A DNA stretch of 64,000 nt. Source: a virus. Taxonomy: Duplodnaviria; Heunggongvirae; Uroviricota; Caudoviricetes. The notes beneath the pieces were generated by a model. It saw nothing but the letters and a program-made list of their open reading frames with translations, was not told the DNA's origin and ran no database searches. Position 1 is the first letter of the stretch. Every line of letters starts with the position of its first letter. This document shows, one piece after another, positions 32,934 to 51,255 of the stretch. The stretch spans positions 1 to 64,000 of the IMG/VR virus record IMGVR_UViG_3300027721_000009, one strand, 5' to 3'. A program made the translations under genes and the position numbers.

Positions 32934-34358
32934 ATGAACGCAACACGTAAGAACGCATTTGTAGCCGCAGCACTTTCGGTGCCGGTAGAGGCTCGTACCG
33001 ACAACGGTATGAAGGCTCAGAAGTCCACCATGTCCGCAATCGTAGACCTGTTCTACATCGTCGGTTCTTCGCGTGGCAAGAATCTCTCGCGCCAGTTCGA
33101 AACTGCCATGCAGCAGGATGAAGACCTTGCGCTCCGTATCGCATTGTGGGCGCGTGACGCTCGCGGTGGTGCGGGTGAGCGTGAGGTATTCAAGTTCCTC
33201 TTGACGCACCTTGAGTTGTCGCGTCCAGACTTCCTCTTAAATTCGAAGTTCTTGGCAAAGGTGCCGGAACTCGGACGTTGGGACGACTTGCTCGTTCTTT
33301 CGGAGCCTCGCGCAAAGGCGAAGGCATTCGACTTGATCAAATCTGCGCTTGAGTCTGGCAACGGACTATGCGCAAAGTGGATGCCACGTAAGGGCAAGGT
33401 TGCTCGCGAACTTCGCGAACACTTCGGCATGTCGCCAAAGGCATACCGCAAGACTCTTGTTGGCTTGTCCAACACGGTCGAGCAGAAGCTTTGTGCGCGT
33501 GAGTTCGACCAAATCAACTACTCGCACGTTCCTTCGCTCGCAATGTCGCGCTACATGAAGGCGTTCTCTAAGAATGACGCAGAGCGTTTCGTTGCATACC
33601 GTGAGTCCTTGAAGAAGGGCGAAACGAAGATCAACGCGAAGGGTGTATTCCCTTATGACGTAATCAAGGCTCTCCGCGCAGGCGGCGACCGTGACGTATG
33701 TAACGCGCAGTGGGACGCACTGCCTGACTACATGGACGACACCAACGTTCTGCCTCTGGTAGACGTTTCGGGATCCATGCACTGTCCGGTTGGTGGCAAC
33801 CCTAACTTGCAGTGCATCGACGTTGCACTTTCGCTCGGACTCTACACTTCGGGACGTAACAAGGGTGTGTTCAAGGACATGTTCCTTACGTTCTCCGCAG
33901 ATCCGGAACTGTTGAAGGTTACGGGTACGCTCTCGCAGCGTATGGATCAGATGAACCAGTCTGAGTGGGGTATGAACACCAATCTGCACAAGGCATTCAC
34001 AAGAATCCTTGACGTTGCAGTGAAGGGTAACGTTCCGCAGGCAGACATGCCATCGGTTCTGTTGATCATGTCGGACATGCAGTTTGACCAGTGCGCTCGC
34101 TTCGATGACTCTGCTATGCAGATGATCGAACGCAAGTACGCTGCGGCAGGCTACAAGGTTCCTGTCATCGTGTTCTGGAACATCAGTGCCGGTGGTAAGG
34201 ATAACGCGCCAGTGTCCTTCGACAAGAAGGGTGTGGCTCTCGTTTCCGGATGCTCGCCTGCAATCATGAAGGCTGTCCTCGCGGCAGACTTCGATGACCT
34301 CTCGCCTGAGACAATCGTGCGGGATGCGGTAAGTATTCCTCGCTATGACTATCGTTGA
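32934..34358 (+). CDS. vWA-domain protein with MIDAS motif; N-terminal helical domain possibly TROVE/Ro60-like (DUF2828-type)
   Basis: C-terminal DVSGSM...T...SDMQF MIDAS arrangement. N-terminal ~270 aa helical with ARDARGGAGER. The TROVE assignment is a hypothesis. Confidence 0.5.
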   Translation: MNATRKNAFVAAALSVPVEARTDNGMKAQKSTMSAIVDLFYIVGSSRGKNLSRQFETAMQQDEDLALRIALWARDARGGAGEREVFKFLLTHLELSRPDFLLNSKFLAKVPELGRWDDLLVLSEPRAKAKAFDLIKSALESGNGLCAKWMPRKGKVARELREHFGMSPKAYRKTLVGLSNTVEQKLCAREFDQINYSHVPSLAMSRYMKAFSKNDAERFVAYRESLKKGETKINAKGVFPYDVIKALRAGGDRDVCNAQWDALPDYMDDTNVLPLVDVSGSMHCPVGGNPNLQCIDVALSLGLYTSGRNKGVFKDMFLTFSADPELLKVTGTLSQRMDQMNQSEWGMNTNLHKAFTRILDVAVKGNVPQADMPSVLLIMSDMQFDQCARFDDSAMQMIERKYAAAGYKVPVIVFWNISAGGKDNAPVSFDKKGVALVSGCSPAIMKAVLAADFDDLSPETIVRDAVSIPRYDYR

Positions 34359-42342: not shown

Positions 42343-42416
42343 GCAAAGGTCGTCTAACGGTTTAGGATACTAGACTTTCAATCTGGAAGATGCGGGTTCG
42401 AATCCCGTCCTTTGCT
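42343..42416 (+). tRNA. tRNA-Glu (anticodon TTC), CCA encoded
   Basis: Hand-folded cloverleaf; T-loop GGTTCGAATCC. Confidence 0.7.
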
Positions 42417-42538
42417 CCAATTCTCAGAGCGCGACTAAATGCGCGTTCGGTAATGTGTCGGGAAAAGAGCGGTGCAATTCCGCAGTCACCTTCGGGTGTC
42501 AGTAAGTGTAATCAGGTGCACGTTCCCATTGTTTCTAT

Positions 42539-42611
42539 TCCGGGTTGACTAGAGTGGTAATAGCCGCGACTGTTAATCGCGTACTCGTAGGTTCGATCCC
42601 TACACCCGGAG
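42539..42611 (+). tRNA. tRNA-Asn (GTT)
   Basis: Hand-folded; anticodon loop CTGTTAA. Confidence 0.7.
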
Positions 42612-42618
42612 CCAACAT

Positions 42619-42691
42619 GCGTAGGTAATTCAACGGCTAGATTGCTTCCCTGTCACGGAAGATTATGCGGGTTCGAATCCCGTCTTACGCG
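42619..42691 (+). tRNA. tRNA-Asp (GTC)
   Basis: Hand-folded; loop CTGTCAC. Confidence 0.7.
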
Positions 42692-42805
42692 CCAACTTCG
42701 TAGTATGACCTACGTAAGATGTATTCCCGCTCGCAAAAGCGTAGGAGCATCCGGTGTCAAAGTCGCAGGGGGTTGCGTATCCTGATAAAACGCAAGACGA
42801 ATTCC

Positions 42806-42876
42806 GGGGAGTTAGTATAACGGGATTATTTCTCGCTTGCACCGAGAAGACAAGGGTTCGATTCCCTTACTCTCCA
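42806..42876 (+). tRNA. tRNA-Ala (TGC)
   Basis: Hand-folded; G3-U70 in the acceptor stem; loop CTTGCAC. Confidence 0.65.
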
Positions 42877-42884
42877 CCAACAAC

Positions 42885-42958
42885 GGGTCTGTCGTATAAC
42901 GGCATATTATATCCGGCTCTTAACCGGTAAGATTAGGGTTCGATTCCCTACAGACCCA
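42885..42958 (+). tRNA. tRNA-Lys (CTT)
   Basis: Hand-folded; loop CTCTTAA. Confidence 0.6.
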
Positions 42959-42966
42959 CCAATCAT

Positions 42967-43050
42967 GAGCGTAACACCCAATAGGAAGGGTATCGGGCTG
43001 TAACCCCGAAGTCGGCTAGTTCCGTGTAGGTTCGACTCCTACTGCGCTCA
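42967..43050 (+). tRNA. tRNA-Tyr (GTA), long variable arm
   Basis: Hand-folded; loop CTGTAAC. Confidence 0.65.
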
Positions 43051-43058
43051 CCAATTTT

Positions 43059-43150
43059 GTTCCTGTAGTTTAACGGTAGAACACCACCCTTATAAAGTGG
43101 CATTGTCGCCAGATTAGCGAACGGTCTAGGTTCGAATCCTAGCAGGAACA
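43059..43150 (+). tRNA. type II tRNA, anticodon ambiguous (CCTTATAAA loop region)
   Basis: Good acceptor and T-arm, about 22-nt variable arm; anticodon stem could not be placed unambiguously. Confidence 0.45.
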
Positions 43151-43161
43151 CCAGTAGATTT

Positions 43162-43235
43162 CGGAGTGTAGCTCAGTCTGGTAGAGCACTGCGTTTGGGG
43201 CGCAGGTGTCCAAAGTTCGAATCTTTGTACTCCGA
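43162..43235 (+). tRNA. tRNA-Pro (TGG)
   Basis: Hand-folded; loop TTTGGGG. Confidence 0.7.
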
Positions 43236-43244
43236 CCAATTTTT

Positions 43245-43320
43245 GCGAGTGTAGCAGAATCGGCATATGCGGGACACTTAAAACGTCCGTCACTTGTGGG
43301 TTCGACTCCCACTACTCGCA
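43245..43320 (+). tRNA. tRNA with Leu-type anticodon TAA (76 nt, short variable loop)
   Basis: Loop CTTAAAA closed by a weak stem; class I length is unusual for Leu. Confidence 0.45.
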
Positions 43321-43543
43321 CCAGAACTTGCGCGAACGCTAGGGATGACAACCCAAGGTCTTGCTCGTCACAAGACTGTTAGTAACGCAACGTATAAAGC
43401 GGAGCGCGGAAATCGCGTTCGCAAACAGAATGATAGAGCCACCGGTAAAACTCCGGTCCTTGATAGACTAGCAAGCTACAAGGTAGTTCAAGAGGTCAAC
43501 GCTTCGCAGCAAAGACCGCGACAGAACACTATCGCATATTTAC

Positions 43544-43614
43544 GCGGGGTTGGCATAATGGTTGTGTCCAAGTCTTCCAAACTTGTTACGCGGGTTCGAT
43601 TCCCGCACTCCGCT
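43544..43614 (+). tRNA. tRNA-Gly (TCC)
   Basis: Hand-folded; loop CTTCCAA. Confidence 0.7.
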
Positions 43615-43621
43615 CCAATTC

Positions 43622-43694
43622 GCCCTTATAGCATAACGGAAAGTGCGTCGGGTTTCTACCCCGTTCGGTGTGGGTTCGATTCCTACTGAGGGCA
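43622..43694 (+). tRNA. tRNA-Arg (TCT)
   Basis: Hand-folded; loop TTTCTAC with a 4-bp anticodon stem. Confidence 0.55.
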
Positions 43695-43707
43695 CCAATT
43701 ATTCAAT

Positions 43708-43781
43708 GCGCCTGTGACGGAACTGGCATACGTGTTAGTCTTAGAAGCTAAATTTTGTGGGTTCGACTCCCACCGGGCGCA
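43708..43781 (+). tRNA. tRNA with Leu-type anticodon TAG (74 nt, class I length)
   Basis: Stem TTAGT/GCTAA, loop CTTAGAA; paralog of the 48155 gene. Confidence 0.55.
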
Positions 43782-43791
43782 CCAATTTCAT

Positions 43792-43862
43792 GTGGGATAA
43801 GTGTTACGGTAGCACAATAGTCTCCAAAACTACTAGCGGGGGTTCGACTCCCTCATCCCACG
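43792..43862 (+). tRNA. tRNA-Trp (CCA)
   Basis: Hand-folded; loop CTCCAAA. Confidence 0.65.
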
Positions 43863-43870
43863 CCAACATC

Positions 43871-43943
43871 GGGTCCATGACGTAACGGCTAGCGTATCGG
43901 GCTTTTACCCCGTAAAGTCAGAGTTCGAATCTCTGTGGACCCA
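43871..43943 (+). tRNA. tRNA-Lys (TTT)
   Basis: Hand-folded; loop CTTTTAC. Confidence 0.65.
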
Positions 43944-44125
43944 CCAAAAAAGGTAGCTCGTAGCTTCCTAGAGAGTTAGTGCCGCTGCCGGTGCGAGTAG
44001 TTAGCCAACACTACTGCGCAGCAGAGAACGGTACTAACGATCTTCAATAGCGCGATAGATAGCTTCGCGGGTGTTAGCGGGTATGGTAGGAAATGACCGT
44101 ATCAAAAACCCGCCGCGAATTCAAT

Positions 44126-44197
44126 GCCGGTGTCTTCTAATGGCTAGGAACGTCAGCCGATTACTGACTAATGGGGGTTCGATTCCTCTCACCGGTA
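44126..44197 (+). tRNA. tRNA-Ile (GAT), unusual loop CCGATTA
   Basis: Perfect 5-bp anticodon stem GTCAG/CTGAC; C33 and T37 are atypical. Confidence 0.5.
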
Positions 44198-44205
44198 CCA
44201 ACTTT

Positions 44206-44277
44206 GCCCTTGTATTTCAACGGACAGAATACGACGCTACGAACGTCATGATGGGGGTTCGATTCCCTCCGAGGGTA
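44206..44277 (+). tRNA. tRNA-Arg (ACG)
   Basis: Hand-folded; loop CTACGAA. Confidence 0.6.
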
Positions 44278-44285
44278 CCAACTTT

Positions 44286-44357
44286 GTCTCTATAGTGTAA
44301 TGGATAACACGCAACTCTCCGAAGGTTGTAATTCAGGCTCGACTCCTGATAGGGACA
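44286..44357 (+). tRNA. tRNA-Arg (CCG)
   Basis: Hand-folded; loop CTCCGAA; T-loop CTCGACT. Confidence 0.6.
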
Positions 44358-44404
44358 CCAAACACAATGCCGCAAAAATGGGGAAACCTGTTGCGTGGCT
44401 CTCC

Positions 44405-44476
44405 GGTGATATCGTACAACGGCTAGTACAGGAGTCTCATAAGCTCTTAATGATGGTTCGATTCCATCTTTCACCA
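44405..44476 (+). tRNA. tRNA-Met (CAT)
   Basis: Hand-folded; loop CTCATAA. Confidence 0.6.
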
Positions 44477-44486
44477 CCAATTCAAT

Positions 44487-44558
44487 GCCGTCATAGTATA
44501 ATGGCGATTACGTCTGTCTTGTAAGCAGACTATCTCAGTTCGATTCTGAGTGACGGCT
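44487..44558 (+). tRNA. tRNA-Thr (TGT)
   Basis: Hand-folded; loop CTTGTAA. Confidence 0.7.
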
Positions 44559-44566
44559 CCAAATAT

Positions 44567-44639
44567 GTAAGCGTGGCAGACCGGCAGATGCATCGGATTG
44601 CAAACCCGATTTAAGCGAGTTCAATTCTCGCCGCTTACT
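44567..44639 (+). tRNA. tRNA-Cys (GCA)
   Basis: Hand-folded; loop TTGCAAA. Confidence 0.6.
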
Positions 44640-44648
44640 CCAAACAAT

Positions 44649-44719
44649 GCCCGATTCGTAAAATGGTATTACCTCGCTTTTACACGGCGAAGTCGGCAGT
44701 TCGATCCTGTCATCGGGTA
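44649..44719 (+). tRNA. tRNA-Val (TAC)
   Basis: Hand-folded; loop TTTACAC. Confidence 0.65.
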
Positions 44720-44731
44720 CCAACAAACAAT

Positions 44732-44804
44732 AGCGAAAGAGTGAAACGGTTTACATTCTAGCCTCATAAGCTAGAGACATTGGGTTCGACTCCCATGATC
44801 GCTA
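44732..44804 (+). tRNA. second CAT-anticodon tRNA (fMet, Met or Ile2/lysidine)
   Basis: Perfect anticodon stem CTAGC/GCTAG, loop CTCATAA; imperfect acceptor stem. Confidence 0.5.
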
Positions 44805-44812
44805 CCAACAAC

Positions 44813-44883
44813 GTCCGATTAGCTTAAAAGTGAAGCACAGACCTGATAAGTCTGAGAAGTAGGAGCATTACCTACATTGGACA
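44813..44883 (+). tRNA. tRNA (GAT) with non-canonical T-loop AGCATTA
   Basis: Perfect acceptor and anticodon stems; T-arm GTAGG-AGCATTA-CCTAC lacks the TTC. Confidence 0.5.
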
Positions 44884-44972
44884 CCAACTACATTCAGCGC
44901 ACGAAAAGGTAAGTAGTGCGGTCTTGCGTCAACAAGGCGAGTTGTATCTTGACGGATATGATGACTGCGTGC

Positions 44973-45044
44973 GCCGCCATAGTATAACGGTTATTACAAG
45001 GTCTTGGTAAGACTTGAATCACAGTTCGATTCTGTGTGGTGGCA
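44973..45044 (+). tRNA. tRNA-Thr (GGT)
   Basis: Hand-folded; loop TTGGTAA. Confidence 0.65.
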
Positions 45045-45130
45045 CCAATTCAATTCAGCACTCGTTCATTTTCGCGAATGTTCGAAGCTACTGTGAAAGT
45101 CAGTCGTCGGTAGCGCGATAGCTACGCCAT

Positions 45131-45201
45131 GCGGGTATGATGTATTGGTTGCCTAGAACTTTGCCAAAGTTCATGAACGGGTTCGATTCCCGTTACCCGC
45201 T
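45131..45201 (+). tRNA. tRNA-Gly (GCC)
   Basis: Hand-folded; loop TTGCCAA. Confidence 0.7.
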
Positions 45202-45206
45202 CCAAT

Positions 45207-45821
45207 TCAACACGGATCGTATCTGTAATCCAAGCGATACAGGTCTTCGATCCCGCGTCTTAGATCGTCGGTAACAACGAGGTCTGTTATGAAGTTCGGC
45301 TTCTCGTTCTCAACGGGAATGTCGATTGCCGTATCACCACCGAAGATGCCGATAAGTCTTCTGGCTTCCGATTCGAAGTCATGATAGTTGAGTACGTTCA
45401 TGTTCGGATGGTCAAACCATGCGGACTGCGGCTTGAAGCCGAGAATGTTAGTGCGGTTGATCCGCTCCAACAAATCCACCGGCTGACGATTGATCTTCTC
45501 TCTTAGGTGTTGCGGCAGCGCGTTGAATGACTCTTCATCCAATGGCTCTGGCATGACGACACCAGAGAAGTCTTCCGGAAAAAGTTTGAACAGGACGGTT
45601 CGATACGTGCGCAGAAAGTTGTACGTGGATACGAAACGTTCTACAGGGTCGCGCCAGAAAGCGTAACCCGTCAGTGCTAAATACGCGGGACTTGGAGTGT
45701 CATGAATGTGAACAGCAACATTCGTCCCAAGCGGTCTTAGCAGATTTCGAATGGTAGTCGAACCAGTCTTCGGCACCAGATAGAAAATGTATTTGTTATC
45801 GTGACTGACGATCATACTCAT
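45207..45821 (-). CDS. sulfotransferase-family protein (the only convincing minus-strand gene in the window)
   Basis: N-terminal YLVPKTGSTT (5'-PSB, PAPS-binding-like) and a later RDP... region. Inserted inside the tRNA array. Confidence 0.6.
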   Translation of the reverse strand: MSMIVSHDNKYIFYLVPKTGSTTIRNLLRPLGTNVAVHIHDTPSPAYLALTGYAFWRDPVERFVSTYNFLRTYRTVLFKLFPEDFSGVVMPEPLDEESFNALPQHLREKINRQPVDLLERINRTNILGFKPQSAWFDHPNMNVLNYHDFESEARRLIGIFGGDTAIDIPVENEKPNFITDLVVTDDLRRGIEDLYRLDYRYDPC

Positions 45822-45943
45822 ATTTAGGGGAAGAGAAATGTTCCAAGAAAGAAATAGAGCATACTACCTAAGACAAGCGCGAGCATGTTTCAAGGCAGGC
45901 TTGATCTTTCTGAAACGTTCGGTCTTCCTCCCCAAGAGATAAT

Positions 45944-46016
45944 GTCCTCTAAACTAATCTAGTGAAAGTGCAAGTTTGAAAAACTTGAGAGGTTGGAGCG
46001 TAACCAACAGAGGACA
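45944..46016 (+). tRNA. tRNA-Phe (GAA) with non-canonical T-loop AGCGTAA
   Basis: Perfect acceptor GTCCTCT/AGAGGAC and anticodon stem CAAGT/ACTTG. Confidence 0.55.
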
Positions 46017-46125
46017 CCACATTTCCTACGTCACTGAAATTGAACGTAGCGTAATAGAGTCAACAGATGAAACGACCTCCCTAGTGGTGCACTCAATAGT
46101 GCTGAAAAAATCTGTCGAATACAAT

Positions 46126-46199
46126 GCACCGGTCTTCTAACAGGATAGGAAAACAGATTCTCAATCTGTGCAATGACGGTTCGAATCCGTTCCGGTGCG
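46126..46199 (+). tRNA. tRNA-Glu (CTC)
   Basis: Hand-folded; loop TTCTCAA. Confidence 0.65.
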
Positions 46200-46277
46200 C
46201 CAACCAATCGTCCCGCGCATAGCTCGACAGCGCATGTGTACACATGGGCAGAATCAACTGCCGGGATGACCAGATAA

Positions 46278-46349
46278 CAGGATGTAAGTCAAAAGCAGAC
46301 GACCTCGCTTGGAACGAGGAGGTAGGTGGAGCGTTACCACCCATCCTGA
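46278..46349 (+). tRNA. tRNA (TGG, Pro-type) with non-canonical T-loop AGCGTTA
   Basis: Perfect stems; T-arm GGTGG-AGCGTTA-CCACC. Confidence 0.5.
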
Positions 46350-46495
46350 CCAACATCTTGCGTACATTTTCTAGAGGGTGTACGTGAGGACTTGAAAGTA
46401 GCCGACTGGCAAATTACGATTCAAGCGTCACGCCCTTTACGATACAGGGCGACTCATTCAGAAAGTAGTTCATATGGACTACTAAGTAGATCAAT

Positions 46496-46569
46496 GGTGC
46501 CGGTAGCATAATGGTTAATGCCCAAGACTGTGAATCTTGAAGATGCGGGTTCGAATCCCGTCCAGCACC
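46496..46569 (+). tRNA. tRNA-His (GTG) with G-1
   Basis: Extra 5' G pairing with C73; loop CTGTGAA. Confidence 0.7.
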
Positions 46570-46591
46570 CCAAACACAAACGGAGTTTCCC

Positions 46592-46771
46592 ATGGCAGCG
46601 AAGAACGATGTAACAGGCGATAGCATAAAAACTAAGACCGGCAACTCTAATGCATATGCAAAGGGTTGGGATCGTATCTTCAAGAAAGGGAAAGCCAAGA
46701 AAGGTGAAGAACTAACAGTGTGCGTTGCAAAGCGCGGCGTTGGTAAGTCAACCTTCAACAAGAACAATTGA
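46592..46771 (+). CDS. small ORF (59 aa) inside the tRNA array
   Basis: GGAG RBS 7 nt upstream; motif AYAKGWDRIFKKG; its TGA overlaps the first nt of tRNA-Gln. Confidence 0.4.
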   Translation: MAAKNDVTGDSIKTKTGNSNAYAKGWDRIFKKGKAKKGEELTVCVAKRGVGKSTFNKNN

Positions 46772-46843
46772 CCACATGCGGTACCGGTATCTGCACCTTG
46801 TCTTTGAAACAAGATTTTCTAGGTTCGAATCCTAGGTGGTCAG
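46769..46843 (+). tRNA. tRNA-Gln (TTG)
   Basis: Hand-folded; perfect anticodon stem CTTGT/ACAAG, loop CTTTGAA. Confidence 0.65.
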
Positions 46844-46977
46844 CCAATTTCTCTCGCGAGGAAAAACAACGAATCGTACTACGTTGTAAAACAAGGGTAC
46901 GCAACCATGTGCTGAAAGCAGACGGCTAACGTGCTGTCTCTTCCTTCGGGAAGTGGAGTAAGAGTGGTGGTAGTAAG

Positions 46978-47055
46978 CGATTCTAAGATAGTTCAATCAG
47001 GTAGAACAACCTCACGCTAAGAGGGAGACAGAGGTTCAAATCCTCACTAGAATCC
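46978..47055 (+). pseudogene. degenerate tRNA-like sequence (D-arm and T-arm present, acceptor pairing broken, no CCA)
   Basis: TAGTTCAATCAGGTAGAAC D-arm and GGTTCAAATCC T-loop, but no consistent 7-bp acceptor stem. Confidence 0.3.
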
Positions 47056-47093
47056 GGACGCAGCTTCCAAGAATGCCAAATGCGTCCAACTTT

Positions 47094-47164
47094 TCTCGGC
47101 TCGTCTAACGGCAGGACGCAACACTCTGAATGTTGCTATCGAGGTTCGAATCCTTGGCTGAGAA
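47094..47164 (+). tRNA. tRNA-Gln (CTG)
   Basis: Hand-folded; loop CTCTGAA. Confidence 0.7.
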
Positions 47165-47207
47165 CCAAACATACATACTCTTGAGTGACCCTCAAGAGGA
47201 TTACAAG

Positions 47208-47750
47208 ATGGAACCGATTCAAGTGATGTACGAAGGCGACCTCGCCCCTCTGATTGAGTGGGCTGAGAATGGCGACAGGGATCGCGACGGATTAGGCTTC
47301 GCGCCTGAACCGTTCTACTCATGGGTGCGCAATCACATGCCGCCCTACTGTCGCGGATTCGTTACGAACACCATCGGGTACATAACGGAGAATGGAATCT
47401 TCGACGGTGATTGGGTTAAGGGATATCCACATATCCATACCACAACGATGTTTTGGGAACCCGAGATATACACCATCATCACCTATCTGATCGTACCCGA
47501 AGAGGGTGGCGAATTCGCGATGGGTGGATTGGAACGGAACGATCCGTACACTTTGATTCCGGTCAAGCCGGGATTGTCCATCGGGTGTGATTCAATCACA
47601 TGGCATGGAGTCAAGCAAGTACGAAAGGGAAAGCGCGTTGCGATAGTGACGGCAGGCTTTCCATCACAAGAGTACCAGAAGAAATGTCTGGCACTGAGAA
47701 ACGAGAACAAAGGAAGGTTGCGCGAGAGGCTTATGCGCCCTGTTTGCTAA
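47208..47750 (+). CDS. putative 2OG-Fe(II) oxygenase-like protein
   Basis: AGAGGA RBS. HxD...H-like YPHIHTT...WHGV. Last ~40 nt overlap tRNA-Ser(GCT), with the stop TAA inside its anticodon loop. Confidence 0.4.
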   Translation: MEPIQVMYEGDLAPLIEWAENGDRDRDGLGFAPEPFYSWVRNHMPPYCRGFVTNTIGYITENGIFDGDWVKGYPHIHTTTMFWEPEIYTIITYLIVPEEGGEFAMGGLERNDPYTLIPVKPGLSIGCDSITWHGVKQVRKGKRVAIVTAGFPSQEYQKKCLALRNENKGRLRERLMRPVC

Positions 47751-47796
47751 ACAGAGGGATGTAACAGTCACAGAGGTTCGAATCCTCTACCTTCCG
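47712..47796 (+). tRNA. tRNA-Ser (GCT), type II
   Basis: Hand-folded; loop TTGCTAA; long variable arm. Confidence 0.65.
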
Positions 47797-47804
47797 CCAA
47801 ATTT

Positions 47805-47891
47805 GGAAGATTGACCGAGAGGCTTATGGTTCCCGCTTGGAAAGCGGTGAGTGGGGAAACCTACACACAGGTTCAAATCCTGTATCTTCCG
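47805..47891 (+). tRNA. tRNA-Ser (GGA), type II
   Basis: Hand-folded; loop TTGGAAA. Confidence 0.6.
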
Positions 47892-47899
47892 CCACATAT

Positions 47900-47970
47900 G
47901 GTTCTGTCGTATAGAAGCAATACACGGCATTGACATTGCTGAAAAGATGGAGCGTTACCATCCAGAACCA
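47900..47970 (+). tRNA. tRNA (GAC, Val-type) with non-canonical T-loop AGCGTTA
   Basis: Acceptor GGTTCTG/CAGAACC; T-arm GATGG-AGCGTTA-CCATC. Confidence 0.45.
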
Positions 47971-47979
47971 CCAACTAAA

Positions 47980-48064
47980 GGAAGGTTGGCAGAGAGGCTA
48001 ATTGCCGCTGTTTCGAAAGCAGATGGGTGTAAAAACCACACAGGTTCAAATCCTGTACCTTCCG
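47980..48064 (+). tRNA. tRNA-Ser (CGA), type II
   Basis: Hand-folded; loop TTCGAAA. Confidence 0.55.
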
Positions 48065-48073
48065 CCAGACAAT

Positions 48074-48147
48074 GCGAGTGTGATGTAACTGGCAAACGTG
48101 ATCGGCTCAAACCCGATTTTTTGTGGGTTCGAATCCCACCACTCGCA
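48074..48147 (+). tRNA. tRNA with Leu-type anticodon CAA (74 nt, class I length)
   Basis: Perfect anticodon stem ATCGG/CCGAT, loop CTCAAAC. Confidence 0.55.
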
Positions 48148-48154
48148 CCAATAC

Positions 48155-48228
48155 GCGCCTATGACGGAACAGGCATACGTCTAACGTTGAGAACGTTAGT
48201 TTTGTGGGTTCGAATCCCACTAGGCGCA
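48155..48228 (+). tRNA. tRNA with Leu-type anticodon GAG (74 nt, class I length)
   Basis: Perfect anticodon stem TAACG/CGTTA, loop TTGAGAA. Confidence 0.55.
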
Positions 48229-48325
48229 CCAAACATTGAGAGTATGGAAATTACTCAATGAAATTGGACTAGGTGAGGATGGAACGTTGCTAGTACGTAC
48301 ACGGAATACCATAACTGTTTAGTCG

Positions 48326-48495
48326 CCGGAACCATAACCGGAACAATTTACTGAGTCGAGCTAACGCAGGCAACTGAGGAAGTTCGCGACTCTCGCCAAG
48401 GTCGCGTGGGAGGCTAACGCCGTCTAACCACCGTGACACAGAGAGCAACACAAACAGAACGTGGGAAACCTTGGCTTATACGTTCGGGTTGTGGC
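48326..48495 (+). ncRNA. RNase P RNA-like element, apparently miniaturised (catalytic-domain motifs present, specificity-domain region missing)
   Basis: In order: GAGGAAGUUCG (48376; compare E. coli GAGGAAAGUCCGG), GGCUAACGCC (48412; compare GGUAACGCC), ACAGAGAGCAA (48438; exact 11-mer of M1 RNA), ACAGAAC...GGCUUAU (48454-48479; compare ACAGAACCCGGCUUAU). Terminal helix CCAUAACCGGAAC (48332) with GUUCGGGUUGUGG (48482). Confidence 0.45.
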
Positions 48496-48637
48496 AAAGA
48501 TGAATGTTAGCATAGAACAGAATCGCGGCTACGGACTCAGTAATTTCAATAGCTGACCCATACGTGTCGAAAGCTCTTTAGGCAAGACTTGCGGAAGTCG
48601 AAATACGCAAGTTAGACGGTGGGTTGGCGGTACCTAT

Positions 48638-48711
48638 ACCCTTGTAGTTTCAACGGACAGAACACCCCGGTCCTAACGGGTCCAATGCAGGTTCGAATCC
48701 TGTCGAGGGTA
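48638..48711 (+). tRNA. tRNA-Arg (CCT)
   Basis: Hand-folded; loop GTCCTAA; 4-bp anticodon stem. Confidence 0.55.
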
Positions 48712-48722
48712 CCACATATTCG

Positions 48723-48793
48723 CTGTCATCGTATAATGGCTATTACGGATGTTTCGTAAGCATCCTATCTCAGTTCGACTCTGAGTGACAGCA
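48723..48793 (+). tRNA. tRNA-Thr (CGT)
   Basis: Hand-folded; loop TTCGTAA. Confidence 0.65.
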
Positions 48794-48800
48794 CCAGTTT

Positions 48801-48885
48801 GGAAGACTAACTCAACAAGGTTGGGACTCGCCTTGAAAGCGATGGGATGCCTAACGGCATTGGGGCGCGATACCTCAGTCTTCCG
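48801..48885 (+). tRNA. tRNA-Ser (TGA), type II, with non-canonical T-loop CGCGATA
   Basis: Acceptor GGAAGAC/GTCTTCC; loop CTTGAAA. Confidence 0.5.
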
Positions 48886-48964
48886 CCAAGTTAGGGGAAA
48901 CTTTCAGCAAATCAAACAAACTTTACCTGTAATAAAGCAAAAGCGTTTCCCGCCAAATTAGAAA

Positions 48965-50676: not shown

Positions 50677-51255
50677 ATGACGGCTACAGCAGTTCAAATT
50701 CTAATCGCAGACAGCGCAGGCAACCCTAAAGATTGGGTTACGCTCGACTATGCATCCCATTACCTCGCATCCGATAAGGTTGTGTGGCAAGCCGGTTCGG
50801 TTGTCAAGACCTATCGCGGCGGTTTCAACCATGTGACCGGACTGCGTTCGACTCTGGACATTCACTCCATTCTCGGTATCTCCGGTAAGTTGCTAGGCGA
50901 CAAGTTCTTCACCAGAACGACCGTCTACACGGATCGTGAGATTCTGTACGCTCGCGACAGATACCTCTGTGCGTACTGCGGCGACGAGTTCAATGCTTAC
51001 AAGCTAACCATTGACCACGTTCATCCTCAGTCTCGCGGTGGTAAGAACGTCTGGCAGAACTGCGTCACCGCATGTAAGACTTGTAACCACAAGAAGGGTG
51101 ACAAGACTCCGGAAGAGGCAAAGATGCCATTGCTCTATGTGCCATACGCGCCAAACATGTTCGAAAAGATGATTCTAAAGAATCGCAACATCCTTTCGGA
51201 TCAGATGGACTTCCTCAAGGCGCGGGTTCCTAAGACTTCCAGAGTCTTCCTGTAA
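50677..51255 (+). CDS. HNH endonuclease
   Basis: C-terminal CAYCGDEF...LTIDHVHP...NCVTACKTCNHKKGDK HNH/zinc motif. Confidence 0.75.
   Translation: MTATAVQILIADSAGNPKDWVTLDYASHYLASDKVVWQAGSVVKTYRGGFNHVTGLRSTLDIHSILGISGKLLGDKFFTRTTVYTDREILYARDRYLCAYCGDEFNAYKLTIDHVHPQSRGGKNVWQNCVTACKTCNHKKGDKTPEEAKMPLLYVPYAPNMFEKMILKNRNILSDQMDFLKARVPKTSRVFL

Follow-up and report, generated by a model that had tools for sequence, protein, structure and literature searches.

A 194-nt RNase P RNA-like gene without a specificity domain in a phage tRNA array

Ribonuclease P (RNase P), the ribozyme that trims tRNA precursors, is universal and has been studied intensively, and the locus described here raises the question of whether a phage encodes an RNA of this kind within its own set of tRNA genes. 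The window, meaning the whole stretch of DNA that was analyzed, comprises 64,000 nucleotides (nt) of a virus of the class Caudoviricetes (positions 1 to 64,000 of IMG/VR record IMGVR_UViG_3300027721_000009) and contains a long tRNA array with a gap between tRNA-Leu(GAG) at 48155-48231 and tRNA-Arg(CCT) at 48638-48714. A first-pass annotation, made from the letters alone, had described this gap as about 400 nt of non-coding DNA holding a miniaturized RNase P RNA-like gene without the specificity domain (S-domain). The gap measures 406 nt with a longest open reading frame (ORF) of 53 codons, and a full-length covariance model match, a family of homologues and extensive covariation bear out the proposal of such a gene. 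It is 194 nt long, lies on the plus strand at 48349-48542 inside the array, and is almost certainly a selected homologue of the catalytic domain (C-domain) of RNase P RNA.

The Rfam model RNaseP_arch (RF00373) covers 48349-48542 over its full length (model positions 1-288) with 49.3 bits and an E-value of 5.3e-13 in a search of 461 nt or 9.1e-12 in a search of 8 kb, which is far beyond chance, and under E-value reporting it is the single strong non-tRNA match of the gap. The covariance search that had been suggested for the locus gave a significant full-length match, but one below the gathering score of the model, and a scan at Rfam gathering thresholds reports tRNAs only, leaving the RNase P-like RNA unlisted. 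A family covariance model built from 13 sequences of the minimal class described below (R1) scores the window RNA at 229 bits and finds no second copy of it within the window.

The GP88-family protein encoded just downstream of the RNA led to a 172-kb IMG/VR contig (L007) with the identical order of tRNA-Leu(GAG), RNA and tRNA-Arg(CCT) and an RNaseP_arch match of 40.8 bits. Further members were collected by pattern searches from conserved blocks, which required exact motifs and, in two of the patterns, also a short P7 stub. These searches place the RNA on 17 IMG/VR contigs of 5.7-465 kb; it is also carried by 31 true metagenomic loci, three of which, going by their identical lengths, appear to be IMG/VR contigs again (two with identical RNA), and the metagenomic contig L040 is identical to the window. 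The family totals about 45 viral or metagenomic contigs, many of them 100-465 kb long, plus Stenotrophomonas phage DLP6 and the 735-kb uncultured phage LR756501.1. With the 406-nt gap as query, blastn against GenBank phages gave no match at an E-value of 1e-5, and none of 50,697 GenBank phage records is a close relative of the window; DLP6, a cultured carrier, was found at a relaxed E-value (KU682439.2, 105772-106019). The region is unannotated there, and RNase P is unmentioned in the DLP6 genome paper. The best Rfam model for the DLP6 RNA is RNaseP_bact_a (54.7 bits, E-value 1.7e-14); a narrow re-scan of the DLP6 stretch for an alignment to this model returned no match despite the earlier 54.7 bits, which was treated as a filter artefact. 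The member in LR756501.1 (181311-181540, minus strand, corresponding to L021:2819-3048) is divergent, with its P7 changed to GUUG/CAAC, and scores 53 bits with R1; it recurs at the same position in LR756503.1.

Two size classes can be distinguished, a minimal class of about 195 nt that includes the window RNA and a class of 235-290 nt that includes DLP6, in which P3 is longer and one or two extra hairpins occupy the site of the bacterial P18. At least 35 distinct family sequences, spread across many phage lineages, share one deletion architecture. The occurrence of the RNA is so far confined to phages: a signature scan of one genome each from 185,579 bacterial and archaeal species, with a pattern that required the short P7 stub, returned two matches only, both of them chance matches that lack every downstream motif and have zero R1 score. 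Several candidates fell away during the collection. The first pattern, GAGGAAGTTC...AGAGCAA...AACAGAA, retrieved six unrelated coding sequences (L001-L006) with zero RNase P signal, three short blocks being unspecific. Chance pattern matches in L009, L013, L043 and the contigs L055 and L056 from metagenome-assembled genomes were discarded, and the seed from Agrobacterium phage Atu_ph04 (L022) matched neither Rfam nor R1.

The fold was assessed by writing an explicit RNase P-type structure and counting its pairs against alignments. In a structure-naive MAFFT alignment of 13 sequences, 54 pairs are 98.9% paired, versus 30-40% when the partners are slid by one to three columns, and 27 of them have changed on both sides; with the P6 pseudoknot added, the 61 pairs, P4 among them, are 98.6% paired versus 30-38% when slid, and 33 are compensated. 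None of 500 shuffles reaches any observed measure in either count. A covariance model-based alignment of 37 distinct members is 96.6% paired, with compensation in 39 of the 54 pairs. P4 in this alignment is 97% paired and compensated in five of eight pairs, which constitutes an independent test because P4 is absent from the structure of the model. RNAalifold, applied to eight sequences, recovered P1, P3, P4, P5, the P7-like helix, the stub and P15/16, with 25 of 54 pairs compensated. Folding with covariation across related phages, one of the checks put forward in the first-pass annotation, thus strongly supports an RNase P fold.

Conservation of the sequence itself points in the same direction. 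The window RNA is identical to that of L007 at 163 of 194 positions (84%), compared with 50 of 92 (54%) in the adjacent 3' spacer. The 31 differences in the RNA comprise 22 at paired positions and nine in loops, with none in the blocks of the conserved regions (CR), and 21 of the 22 paired-position substitutions preserve the pair. Purifying selection acts on the RNA, on both its RNase P fold and its core nucleotides.

The elements of the window RNA, in order, are as follows.

48349-48357, plus strand: 5' strand of P1, pairing with 48534-48542 over 9 base pairs (bp), with both sides changed in seven to eight pairs family-wide
48360-48365, plus strand: 5' strand of P2, GCUAAC, pairing with GUUAGC at 48506-48511; compensated in four of six pairs in alignment A4 and in six of six in A5
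48367-48376, plus strand: minimal P3 hairpin of 3 bp with a GCAA loop; the middle pair is UA, AU or GC
48376-48389, plus strand: CR-I, consisting of J3/4 (GAGGAA) and the 5' strand of P4, with bulged U48384 as the equivalent of E. coli U69
48390-48394, plus strand: 5' strand of P5, pairing with 48441-48445; four of five pairs compensated
48395-48402, plus strand: 5' strand of the P6 pseudoknot, GCCAAGGU (J5/7), pairing with ACCUUGGC at 48468-48475 in the loop of the P16/17-like hairpin
48403-48433, plus strand: P7-like helix CG-C-GUGG/CCAC-CG with a stub hairpin, at the site of the bacterial S-domain of about 150 nt (P8-P14)
48443-48448, plus strand: end of the 3' strand of P5 and J5/15, GAGCAA, the same string as M1 244-249, with A48447 corresponding to E. 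coli A248
48449-48493, plus strand: P15-L15-P16/17-like stem-loop, in which 48449-53 and 48489-93 form P15 and the helices covary
48498-48506, plus strand: CR-IV (J18/2 equivalent), AGAUGAAUG, an exact 9-mer of M1 at 328
48517-48530, plus strand: CR-V, consisting of J2/4 (ACAGAA, 48517-22) and the 3' strand of P4 (48523-30), ACAGAAUCGCGGCU, placed by the covariance model alignment and P4 covariation
48534-48542, plus strand: 3' strand of P1, covarying with its 5' strand

The ends of the gene at 48349 and 48542 are set by the covarying P1 helix, which the covariance model alignment gives as UACUGAGUC/GACUCAGUA. The first-pass annotation had bounded the gene at 48326-48495, and the end at 48495 removes CR-IV, the 3' strand of P2, the true CR-V, and the 3' strands of P4 and P1. 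Its terminal helix in the P1 position does not hold, because the 5' strand, CCAUAACCGGAAC at 48331-43, sits in a spacer of 117 nt, missing from L007 and L034 although these conserve the RNA, and the 3' strand, GUUCGGGUUGUGG, is actually made up of the 3' strand of P16, L15 and the 3' strand of P15. The five blocks on which that annotation had relied are literally present (GAGGAAGTTCG at 48376, GGCTAACGCC at 48412, ACAGAGAGCAA at 48438, ACAGAAC at 48454 and GGCTTAT at 48473), and several of them belong to other elements than had been thought. The supposed 3' strand of P4, ACAGAAC...UUGGCUUAU, falls within the P15-17 hairpin, ACAGAAUCGCGGCU taking its place, and the UUGG to which a compensatory P4 pairing had been assigned is part of the P6 pseudoknot. 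The P8-like match GGCUAACGCC is coincidental, being a variable stub hairpin the loop of which is UAAC, GAAA, CUUG, UUCG or UUAA among relatives. As claimed, ACAGAGAGCAA is an exact 11-mer of M1 (at position 130), but its value as a signature is lost: in E. coli it lies in the S-domain and in the window it spans the covarying 3' strand of P5 and J5/15, only GCAA being conserved in the family, and the match is coincidental. The exact 9-mer AGAUGAAUG that M1 and the window do share in CR-IV had gone unnoticed.

The catalytic core is retained throughout, comprising P1-P5, the P4 and P6 pseudoknots, P15 with its GGU loop, J5/15, CR-I, CR-IV and CR-V. GAGGAA is kept in 37 of 37 members, as is the bulged-U column; P4 is formed by 48381-89 and 48523-30 with U48384 bulged and is 97-99% paired, with two to five of its eight pairs compensated depending on the alignment. 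The assignment of U48384 as the bulged U is based on the P4 of L014, which takes the canonical bacterial form AAG-U-CGGGA/UCCCG-CUU. The P6 search was prompted by PMC5839562, and the 8-bp helix is compensated in seven of eight pairs with 97% of cells paired in the MAFFT alignment, which was fitted to no structure. Its complementary pair differs in almost every lineage, as in GCUGAAAC/GUUUCAGC, GCCGAGUG/CAUUCGGC, GUUGGAUU/AAUCCAAC and GCAAGAGA/UCUCUUGC. GCAA of J5/15 is kept in 36-37 of 37 members and includes the counterpart of E. coli A248, which contacts N(-1). In L15, an internal loop with ACA (48454-56) facing GGG (48486-88), CGGGU at 48485-89 corresponds to M1 290-294, such that G48487, G48488 and U48489 are the equivalents of E. 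coli G292, G293 and U294, the GGU that binds the tRNA 3'-RCCA. CAAACAG and CGGGU are near-invariant across the 37 members, and by sequence and structure this loop is a predicted RCCA-binding site. The CR-IV core motif AGNNNNAU is found between P15/18 and P2, and the CR-IV columns, like AACAGAA of CR-V, are invariant or nearly so in the family.

What is missing is equally uniform. CR-II, CR-III and P10/11/12 of the S-domain are absent and their model regions are deleted in the covariance model alignments, in agreement with the first-pass annotation, and the S-domain is likewise absent from all 10 matches of a pattern that left the P7 distance free. Only 18 nt separate the P7-like strands in the window, including the stub hairpin at 48410-48423 with its UAAC loop. 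This hairpin is a variable insertion site, with an additional 33 nt in L015-17 and 131 nt in L019; the P7-like helix does not vary within the minimal class, and LR756501 (GUUG/CAAC) is the only member in which it covaries. P18 is absent from the class of the window, where the 3' strand of P15 leads straight into CR-IV (GGC-AA-AGAUGAAUG), and P3 is reduced to 3 bp in this class, being longer in DLP6 and the medium-size class.

Compared with bacterial type A RNase P RNA (RF00010; E. coli M1, rnpB, 377 nt), the window RNA has in common P1-P5, P4 with its bulged U, P6 and P15 with GGU, and five blocks at homologous sites: GAGGAA (window 48376, M1 61), GAGCAA, CGGGU, AGAUGAAUG and ACAGAA (window 48517, M1 347). 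The comparison was checked against the annotated rnpB of NC_000913.3. Exact-string positions were used for it in place of a global alignment to an M1 RNA with the S-domain deleted in silico, which gave 65% identity (z = 3.4) and was mis-registered in the middle of the RNA. Unlike type A, the window RNA is 194 nt long, has neither S-domain nor P18, has a P3 of 3 bp and an extra single strand between P7 and P5, and is phage-encoded in tRNA arrays; it departs from type A in two respects that define the class, the S-domain with CR-II and CR-III and the Rfam thresholds. Most likely, the RNA descends from bacterial type A RNase P RNA through loss of the S-domain (P8-P14), P18 and most of P3.

Among natural RNAs, the archaeal type T RNA of Pyrobaculum and its relatives is the closest analogue. 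This RNase P RNA of the Thermoproteaceae was reportedly discovered by Lai et al. and published in PNAS in 2010. Its S-domain is degenerate or absent, P18 is absent, a P6 is predicted, and its size is similar (PMC5839562, PMC8172020), and no other class of natural RNase P RNA is known to have a degenerate or absent S-domain. The window RNA has this architecture, lacking the S-domain and P18 and keeping P6, and its best Rfam match is a member of the archaeal clan. The bacterial CR-IV and L15 blocks, RNaseP_bact_a as the best match of DLP6, and the bacterial host, Stenotrophomonas, speak against membership in type T. Type T is moreover the sole essential archaeal enzyme and works with archaeal proteins, in contrast to the phage RNAs, which are accessory and viral. 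Since L15 and CR-IV are of the bacterial type and the family grades into the bacterial A-like forms of DLP6, the reduction of the S-domain looks independent of type T, and therefore convergent, in a comparison that takes type T by its description only.

The genomic setting of the RNA is that of tRNA genes. The array and the spacers on either side of the RNA are as follows.

42343-48888, plus strand: same-strand tRNA array of about 40 genes, 35 of them called by ARAGORN, four by Rfam only (44732-44804, 45944-46016, 46982-47052 and 47900-47970), and one tRNA-Ser at a relaxed threshold
48232-48348, plus strand: variable upstream spacer of 117 nt, outside the RNA; absent from L007 and L034, identical in L040, partial in L051
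48543-48637, plus strand: downstream spacer of 95 nt before tRNA-Arg(CCT), of similar length in L034 and L007

Across the family, 28 of 29 metagenomic loci and all six scanned among seven new IMG/VR loci have the RNA within an array, encoded on the strand of the tRNAs, and it is often separated by only 0-10 nt from its flanking tRNAs, as in L017, L018, L023, L030, L061, L065, L066 and DLP6. Examples are 5 nt on both sides in L017, 4 nt upstream in L018, 4 nt downstream in L030, 0 and 8 nt in L061 and L066, and 8 nt downstream in DLP6. A scan for promoters and terminators near the RNA gave matches at chance level only. From this result and the tRNA-like packing, the natural inference is that the RNA would be co-transcribed with the array and released by the cuts of tRNA processing. 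CCA is encoded by all 35 ARAGORN tRNAs and by 35 of the 36 Rfam-defined tRNAs of the window; among tRNAs of the family loci, CCA is encoded in 307 of 367, U(-1) is present in 75%, and the discriminator is a purine in 81%. These features fit a type A enzyme in which L15 recognizes RCCA.

In the window, only the tRNA at 46982 lacks an encoded CCA. The likely 40th tRNA is a type II tRNA-Ser(UGA) at 48801-48888 (plus strand), called by relaxed ARAGORN only, with an acceptor stem of GGAAGAC/GUCUUCC followed by GCCA. The upstream spacer holds the direct repeat CCGGAAC-CAUAA-CCGGAAC, by which the first-pass annotation was misled, and has no other copy in the window. A possible 12-bp long-range stem in the downstream spacer shows a few compensatory changes among three sequences, which is weak evidence, and this spacer might form a long, structured leader or contain a further small RNA.

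A possible course of events can be outlined from these features. The RNA would be transcribed within the polycistronic precursor of the tRNA array and freed by the same cuts that free the neighboring tRNAs, fold into the C-domain core, and bind the host protein RnpA, which is proposed as the partner because no phage copy was found. Together with host RnpA it would trim the 5' leaders of the densely packed, CCA-encoding phage pre-tRNAs. Lack of the S-domain implies lack of T-loop recognition and hence reliance on other contacts, so that pairing of L15 with RCCA, the contact of the A248 equivalent with N(-1) and the contact of RnpA with the leader would position the substrate instead. The benefit to the phage may be extra or re-specified capacity for tRNA 5' maturation during infection, and the needs behind it could include capacity for some 40 tRNAs, not having to rely on the host enzyme, or a changed specificity. 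The published biochemistry supports the feasibility of such an enzyme. An engineered E. coli C-domain RNA cleaves at the correct site whether the C5 protein is present or not, P18 is dispensable once the S-domain is gone, a variant with P18 deleted and P3 minimized still cleaves at +1, and P15-17 and the P6-like pairing are required (PMC5839562); the phage RNA retains exactly these required elements. The constructs of that study (Eco CP RPR, delP18 and delP18-P3Mini) are the nearest functional analogue, being type A C-domains with P15-17 and P6, no S-domain or P18 and a reduced P3. They differ from the phage RNAs in being laboratory molecules about 100-fold slower than M1, whereas the phage RNAs are natural and maintained and keep a P7-like helix with its stub and conserved segments of their own. 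Judged from sequence and structure, the RNA is more likely than not a catalytic RNase P subunit that works with host RnpA on phage pre-tRNAs. The full proposition, that it is an active phage RNase P ribozyme of 194 nt, with a C-domain only, which hijacks host RnpA, takes over or re-specifies tRNA 5' maturation and lost its S-domain independently of Pyrobaculum, is put forward more tentatively, with somewhat less than an even chance of holding in all its parts.

A number of points weigh against a working enzyme of this kind or against the classification on which it is based. Host RNase P processes phage tRNA precursors, with T4 as the precedent, and the need for a phage copy is non-obvious. Encoded CCA and U(-1) are equally preferred by host RNase P and do not discriminate. 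Without its S-domain, E. coli RNase P RNA is about 100-fold slower in vitro (PMC5839562), and a C-domain-only enzyme would be a poor catalyst unless compensated. No RnpA homologue turned up in the window, in related loci totalling 462 kb, in the complete genome of DLP6 or in LR756501 by tblastn with E. coli RnpA only, a search of limited sensitivity. The L010/L011/L012 clade, L038 and LR756501 have the RNA away from tRNAs. The Rfam scores stay below the gathering scores, at 49.3 bits against 84 for RF00373 in the window and 54.7 against 100 for RF00010 in DLP6, which is explained by the absence from the RNA of about half of each model, the whole S-domain. R1 finds no spanning match in E. coli rnpB, an uninformative outcome for a narrow model facing insertions of more than 180 nt. 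Lastly, an invariant segment, GUGGGAG...ACCACCGUGAYAYAG (window 48403-48440 and homologous columns), has no canonical RNase P counterpart; it stands at a fixed 20-nt spacing from CR-I, includes a single strand of about 8 nt between P7 and P5, and as a family-specific conserved module could serve a different or additional function.

Other explanations of the RNA were weighed as well. Chance resemblance of short motifs is suggested by the six unrelated coding sequences fetched with three blocks alone and by the two of five blocks in the first-pass annotation that proved coincidental, and its probability is negligible in view of the covariance model E-values (5e-13 and 9e-12), the syntenic conservation and a covariation that no shuffle in 500 matched. 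A decaying remnant, or pseudogene, of a captured host rnpB had also been entertained in the first-pass annotation, and the loss of half the ancestral molecule together with scores under the Rfam thresholds would suit it. A pseudogene should not, however, recur as at least 35 distinct sequences with the same deletion architecture and compensatory changes in every variable helix, and the comparison with L007, in which the RNA is far better conserved than its spacer and all but one of the paired substitutions keep the pair, leaves this origin very improbable.

The remaining explanations accept a selected RNA and assign it another task. As a decoy or competitor, it would retain the protein-binding face of the C-domain, titrate host RnpA and thereby inhibit or re-tune host RNase P, for example in host shut-off, while being unproductive itself. 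With no phage RnpA found, any protein partner would be that of the host; S-domain loss strongly cuts the activity of engineered RNAs (PMC5839562); an orthopoxvirus RNase P-like RNA is inactive and was proposed as a possible decoy (PMC3001073); and several family members lie away from tRNAs. A decoy has no need of catalytic or substrate-binding nucleotides, yet the bulged U, A248, the GGU of L15 and P6, a pseudoknot that supports catalysis by the C-domain, are invariant or maintained by covariation, and a position packed closely among CCA-encoding tRNAs is more in keeping with an enzyme than with something that inhibits the enzyme they require, all of which makes a decoy unlikely. We give about the same low weight to an exapted derivative that would act on other substrates (a helix with RCCA, or mRNAs) or serve as a chaperone or scaffold of the array transcript, perhaps with a phage protein replacing the S-domain. 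The invariant module with its fixed distance from CR-I, the loss of T-loop recognition, the cleavage of simple hairpin-RCCA substrates by C-domain RNAs (PMC5839562) and the large insertions accepted by the stub hairpin are compatible with such a role. It is disfavored by the retention of all canonical chemistry and CCA-binding elements and by a genomic association that is strongest with tRNA genes, and the genes beside the RNA encode no protein family that recurs consistently across clades.

In open-access papers and bioRxiv, no previous description of a phage RNase P RNA was found, in line with the expectation of the first-pass annotation, and a description elsewhere is possible. The sole viral RNase P-like RNA found in this literature is the orthopoxvirus (camelpox) candidate, which is likewise virus-encoded; in the part of PMC3001073 that deals with it (citing its reference 93), it belongs to a eukaryotic virus, has a partial likeness in secondary structure, is reported inactive in pre-tRNA processing and has no tRNA array. 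The phage RNA differs from it in a full catalytic core that is conserved and covarying. The stable RNAs C and D of T4 (rnaC and rnaD) are similar in being small RNAs encoded inside a phage tRNA cluster and on the same strand as its tRNAs, and DLP6 is T4-like; considered as relatives, they were rejected, R1 finding nothing above noise in the T4 region.

If active, the RNA would be the first RNase P of a virus and, among natural RNase P RNAs of bacterial type, the smallest. C-domain-only bacterial forms have previously been laboratory constructs only, and natural S-domain-less RNAs come from one archaeal family only. Activity would also add tRNA 5' maturation to the translation functions of large phages, such as tRNAs, transfer-messenger RNA (tmRNA) and aminoacyl-tRNA synthetases, and would provide a natural experiment on the roles of the S-domain and P18 and on C-domain function in vivo, for which DLP6 and S. 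maltophilia D1571 are a cultured pair, as well as a compact ribozyme scaffold (about 195 nt) that evolution has already tested. Scans at Rfam gathering thresholds overlook such genes, which are unannotated in DLP6, LR756501 and dozens of IMG/VR genomes.

The proteins encoded in the window are phage-like and include a ribonucleotide reductase, NAMPT, HNH endonucleases and the GP88-family protein. One protein of the window also matches a Logan assembly of SRR5468428, a match that carries no information on the host. An ORF of the sulfotransferase family (45207-45821, minus strand) lies within the tRNA array on the opposite strand, and an HNH endonuclease ORF (50677-51255, plus strand) just downstream of the array. 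A 474-amino-acid DUF2828/DUF7788 protein (32934-34358, plus strand; phrog_850, 'RNA-binding protein') is encoded about 14 kb upstream. A Ro60/Y-RNA lead, arising from a weak YrlA match in L007 and the annotation of phrog_850, was dropped, as the window lacks any Y-RNA match and the phrog_850 ORF belongs to DUF2828/DUF7788. The sole matches to a phage-encoded RnpA were host-contaminated or mis-filed records, and this candidate was likewise rejected. The divergent RNA of LR756501 has zero tRNA genes within 3 kb.

Other RNA genes were observed at these loci. A long tRNA-Ile(UAU) of 92-95 nt occurs in the window (43059-43153, plus strand) and in L015-L017, L028, L039, L042, L064, L065, L067 and DLP6, often close to the RNase P-like RNA. 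In L019 (IMGVR_UViG_3300017716_001697, 365 kb), the RNA at L019:5482-5827 has its 131-nt insert (L019:5563-5693) in the stub hairpin; the insert is uncalled by ARAGORN and has a 7-bp acceptor stem with G3:U70, a T-arm of GGGUUCAACUCCC and a 3' CCA. From these features it appears to be a gene of tRNA-like or tmRNA-like kind that interrupts the ribozyme gene, and if it were excised like a tRNA, the L019 RNA could consist of two pieces reassociating through P1, P2, P4, P5 and P7. The tRNA region of DLP6 contains an unannotated permuted tmRNA (L020:978-1251, KU682439.2 about 102792-103065; RF04321 136.8 bits, beta_tmRNA 103.7 bits) that partly overlaps an annotated hypothetical coding sequence, and tmRNAs near the RNase P-like RNA are also present in L064 and L067. 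The unrelated 92-kb contig L003 (IMGVR_UViG_3300042451_001241) carries a GOLLD RNA (308 bits) beside a tRNA and a tmRNA (L003:4832-5227, L003:3337-3723).

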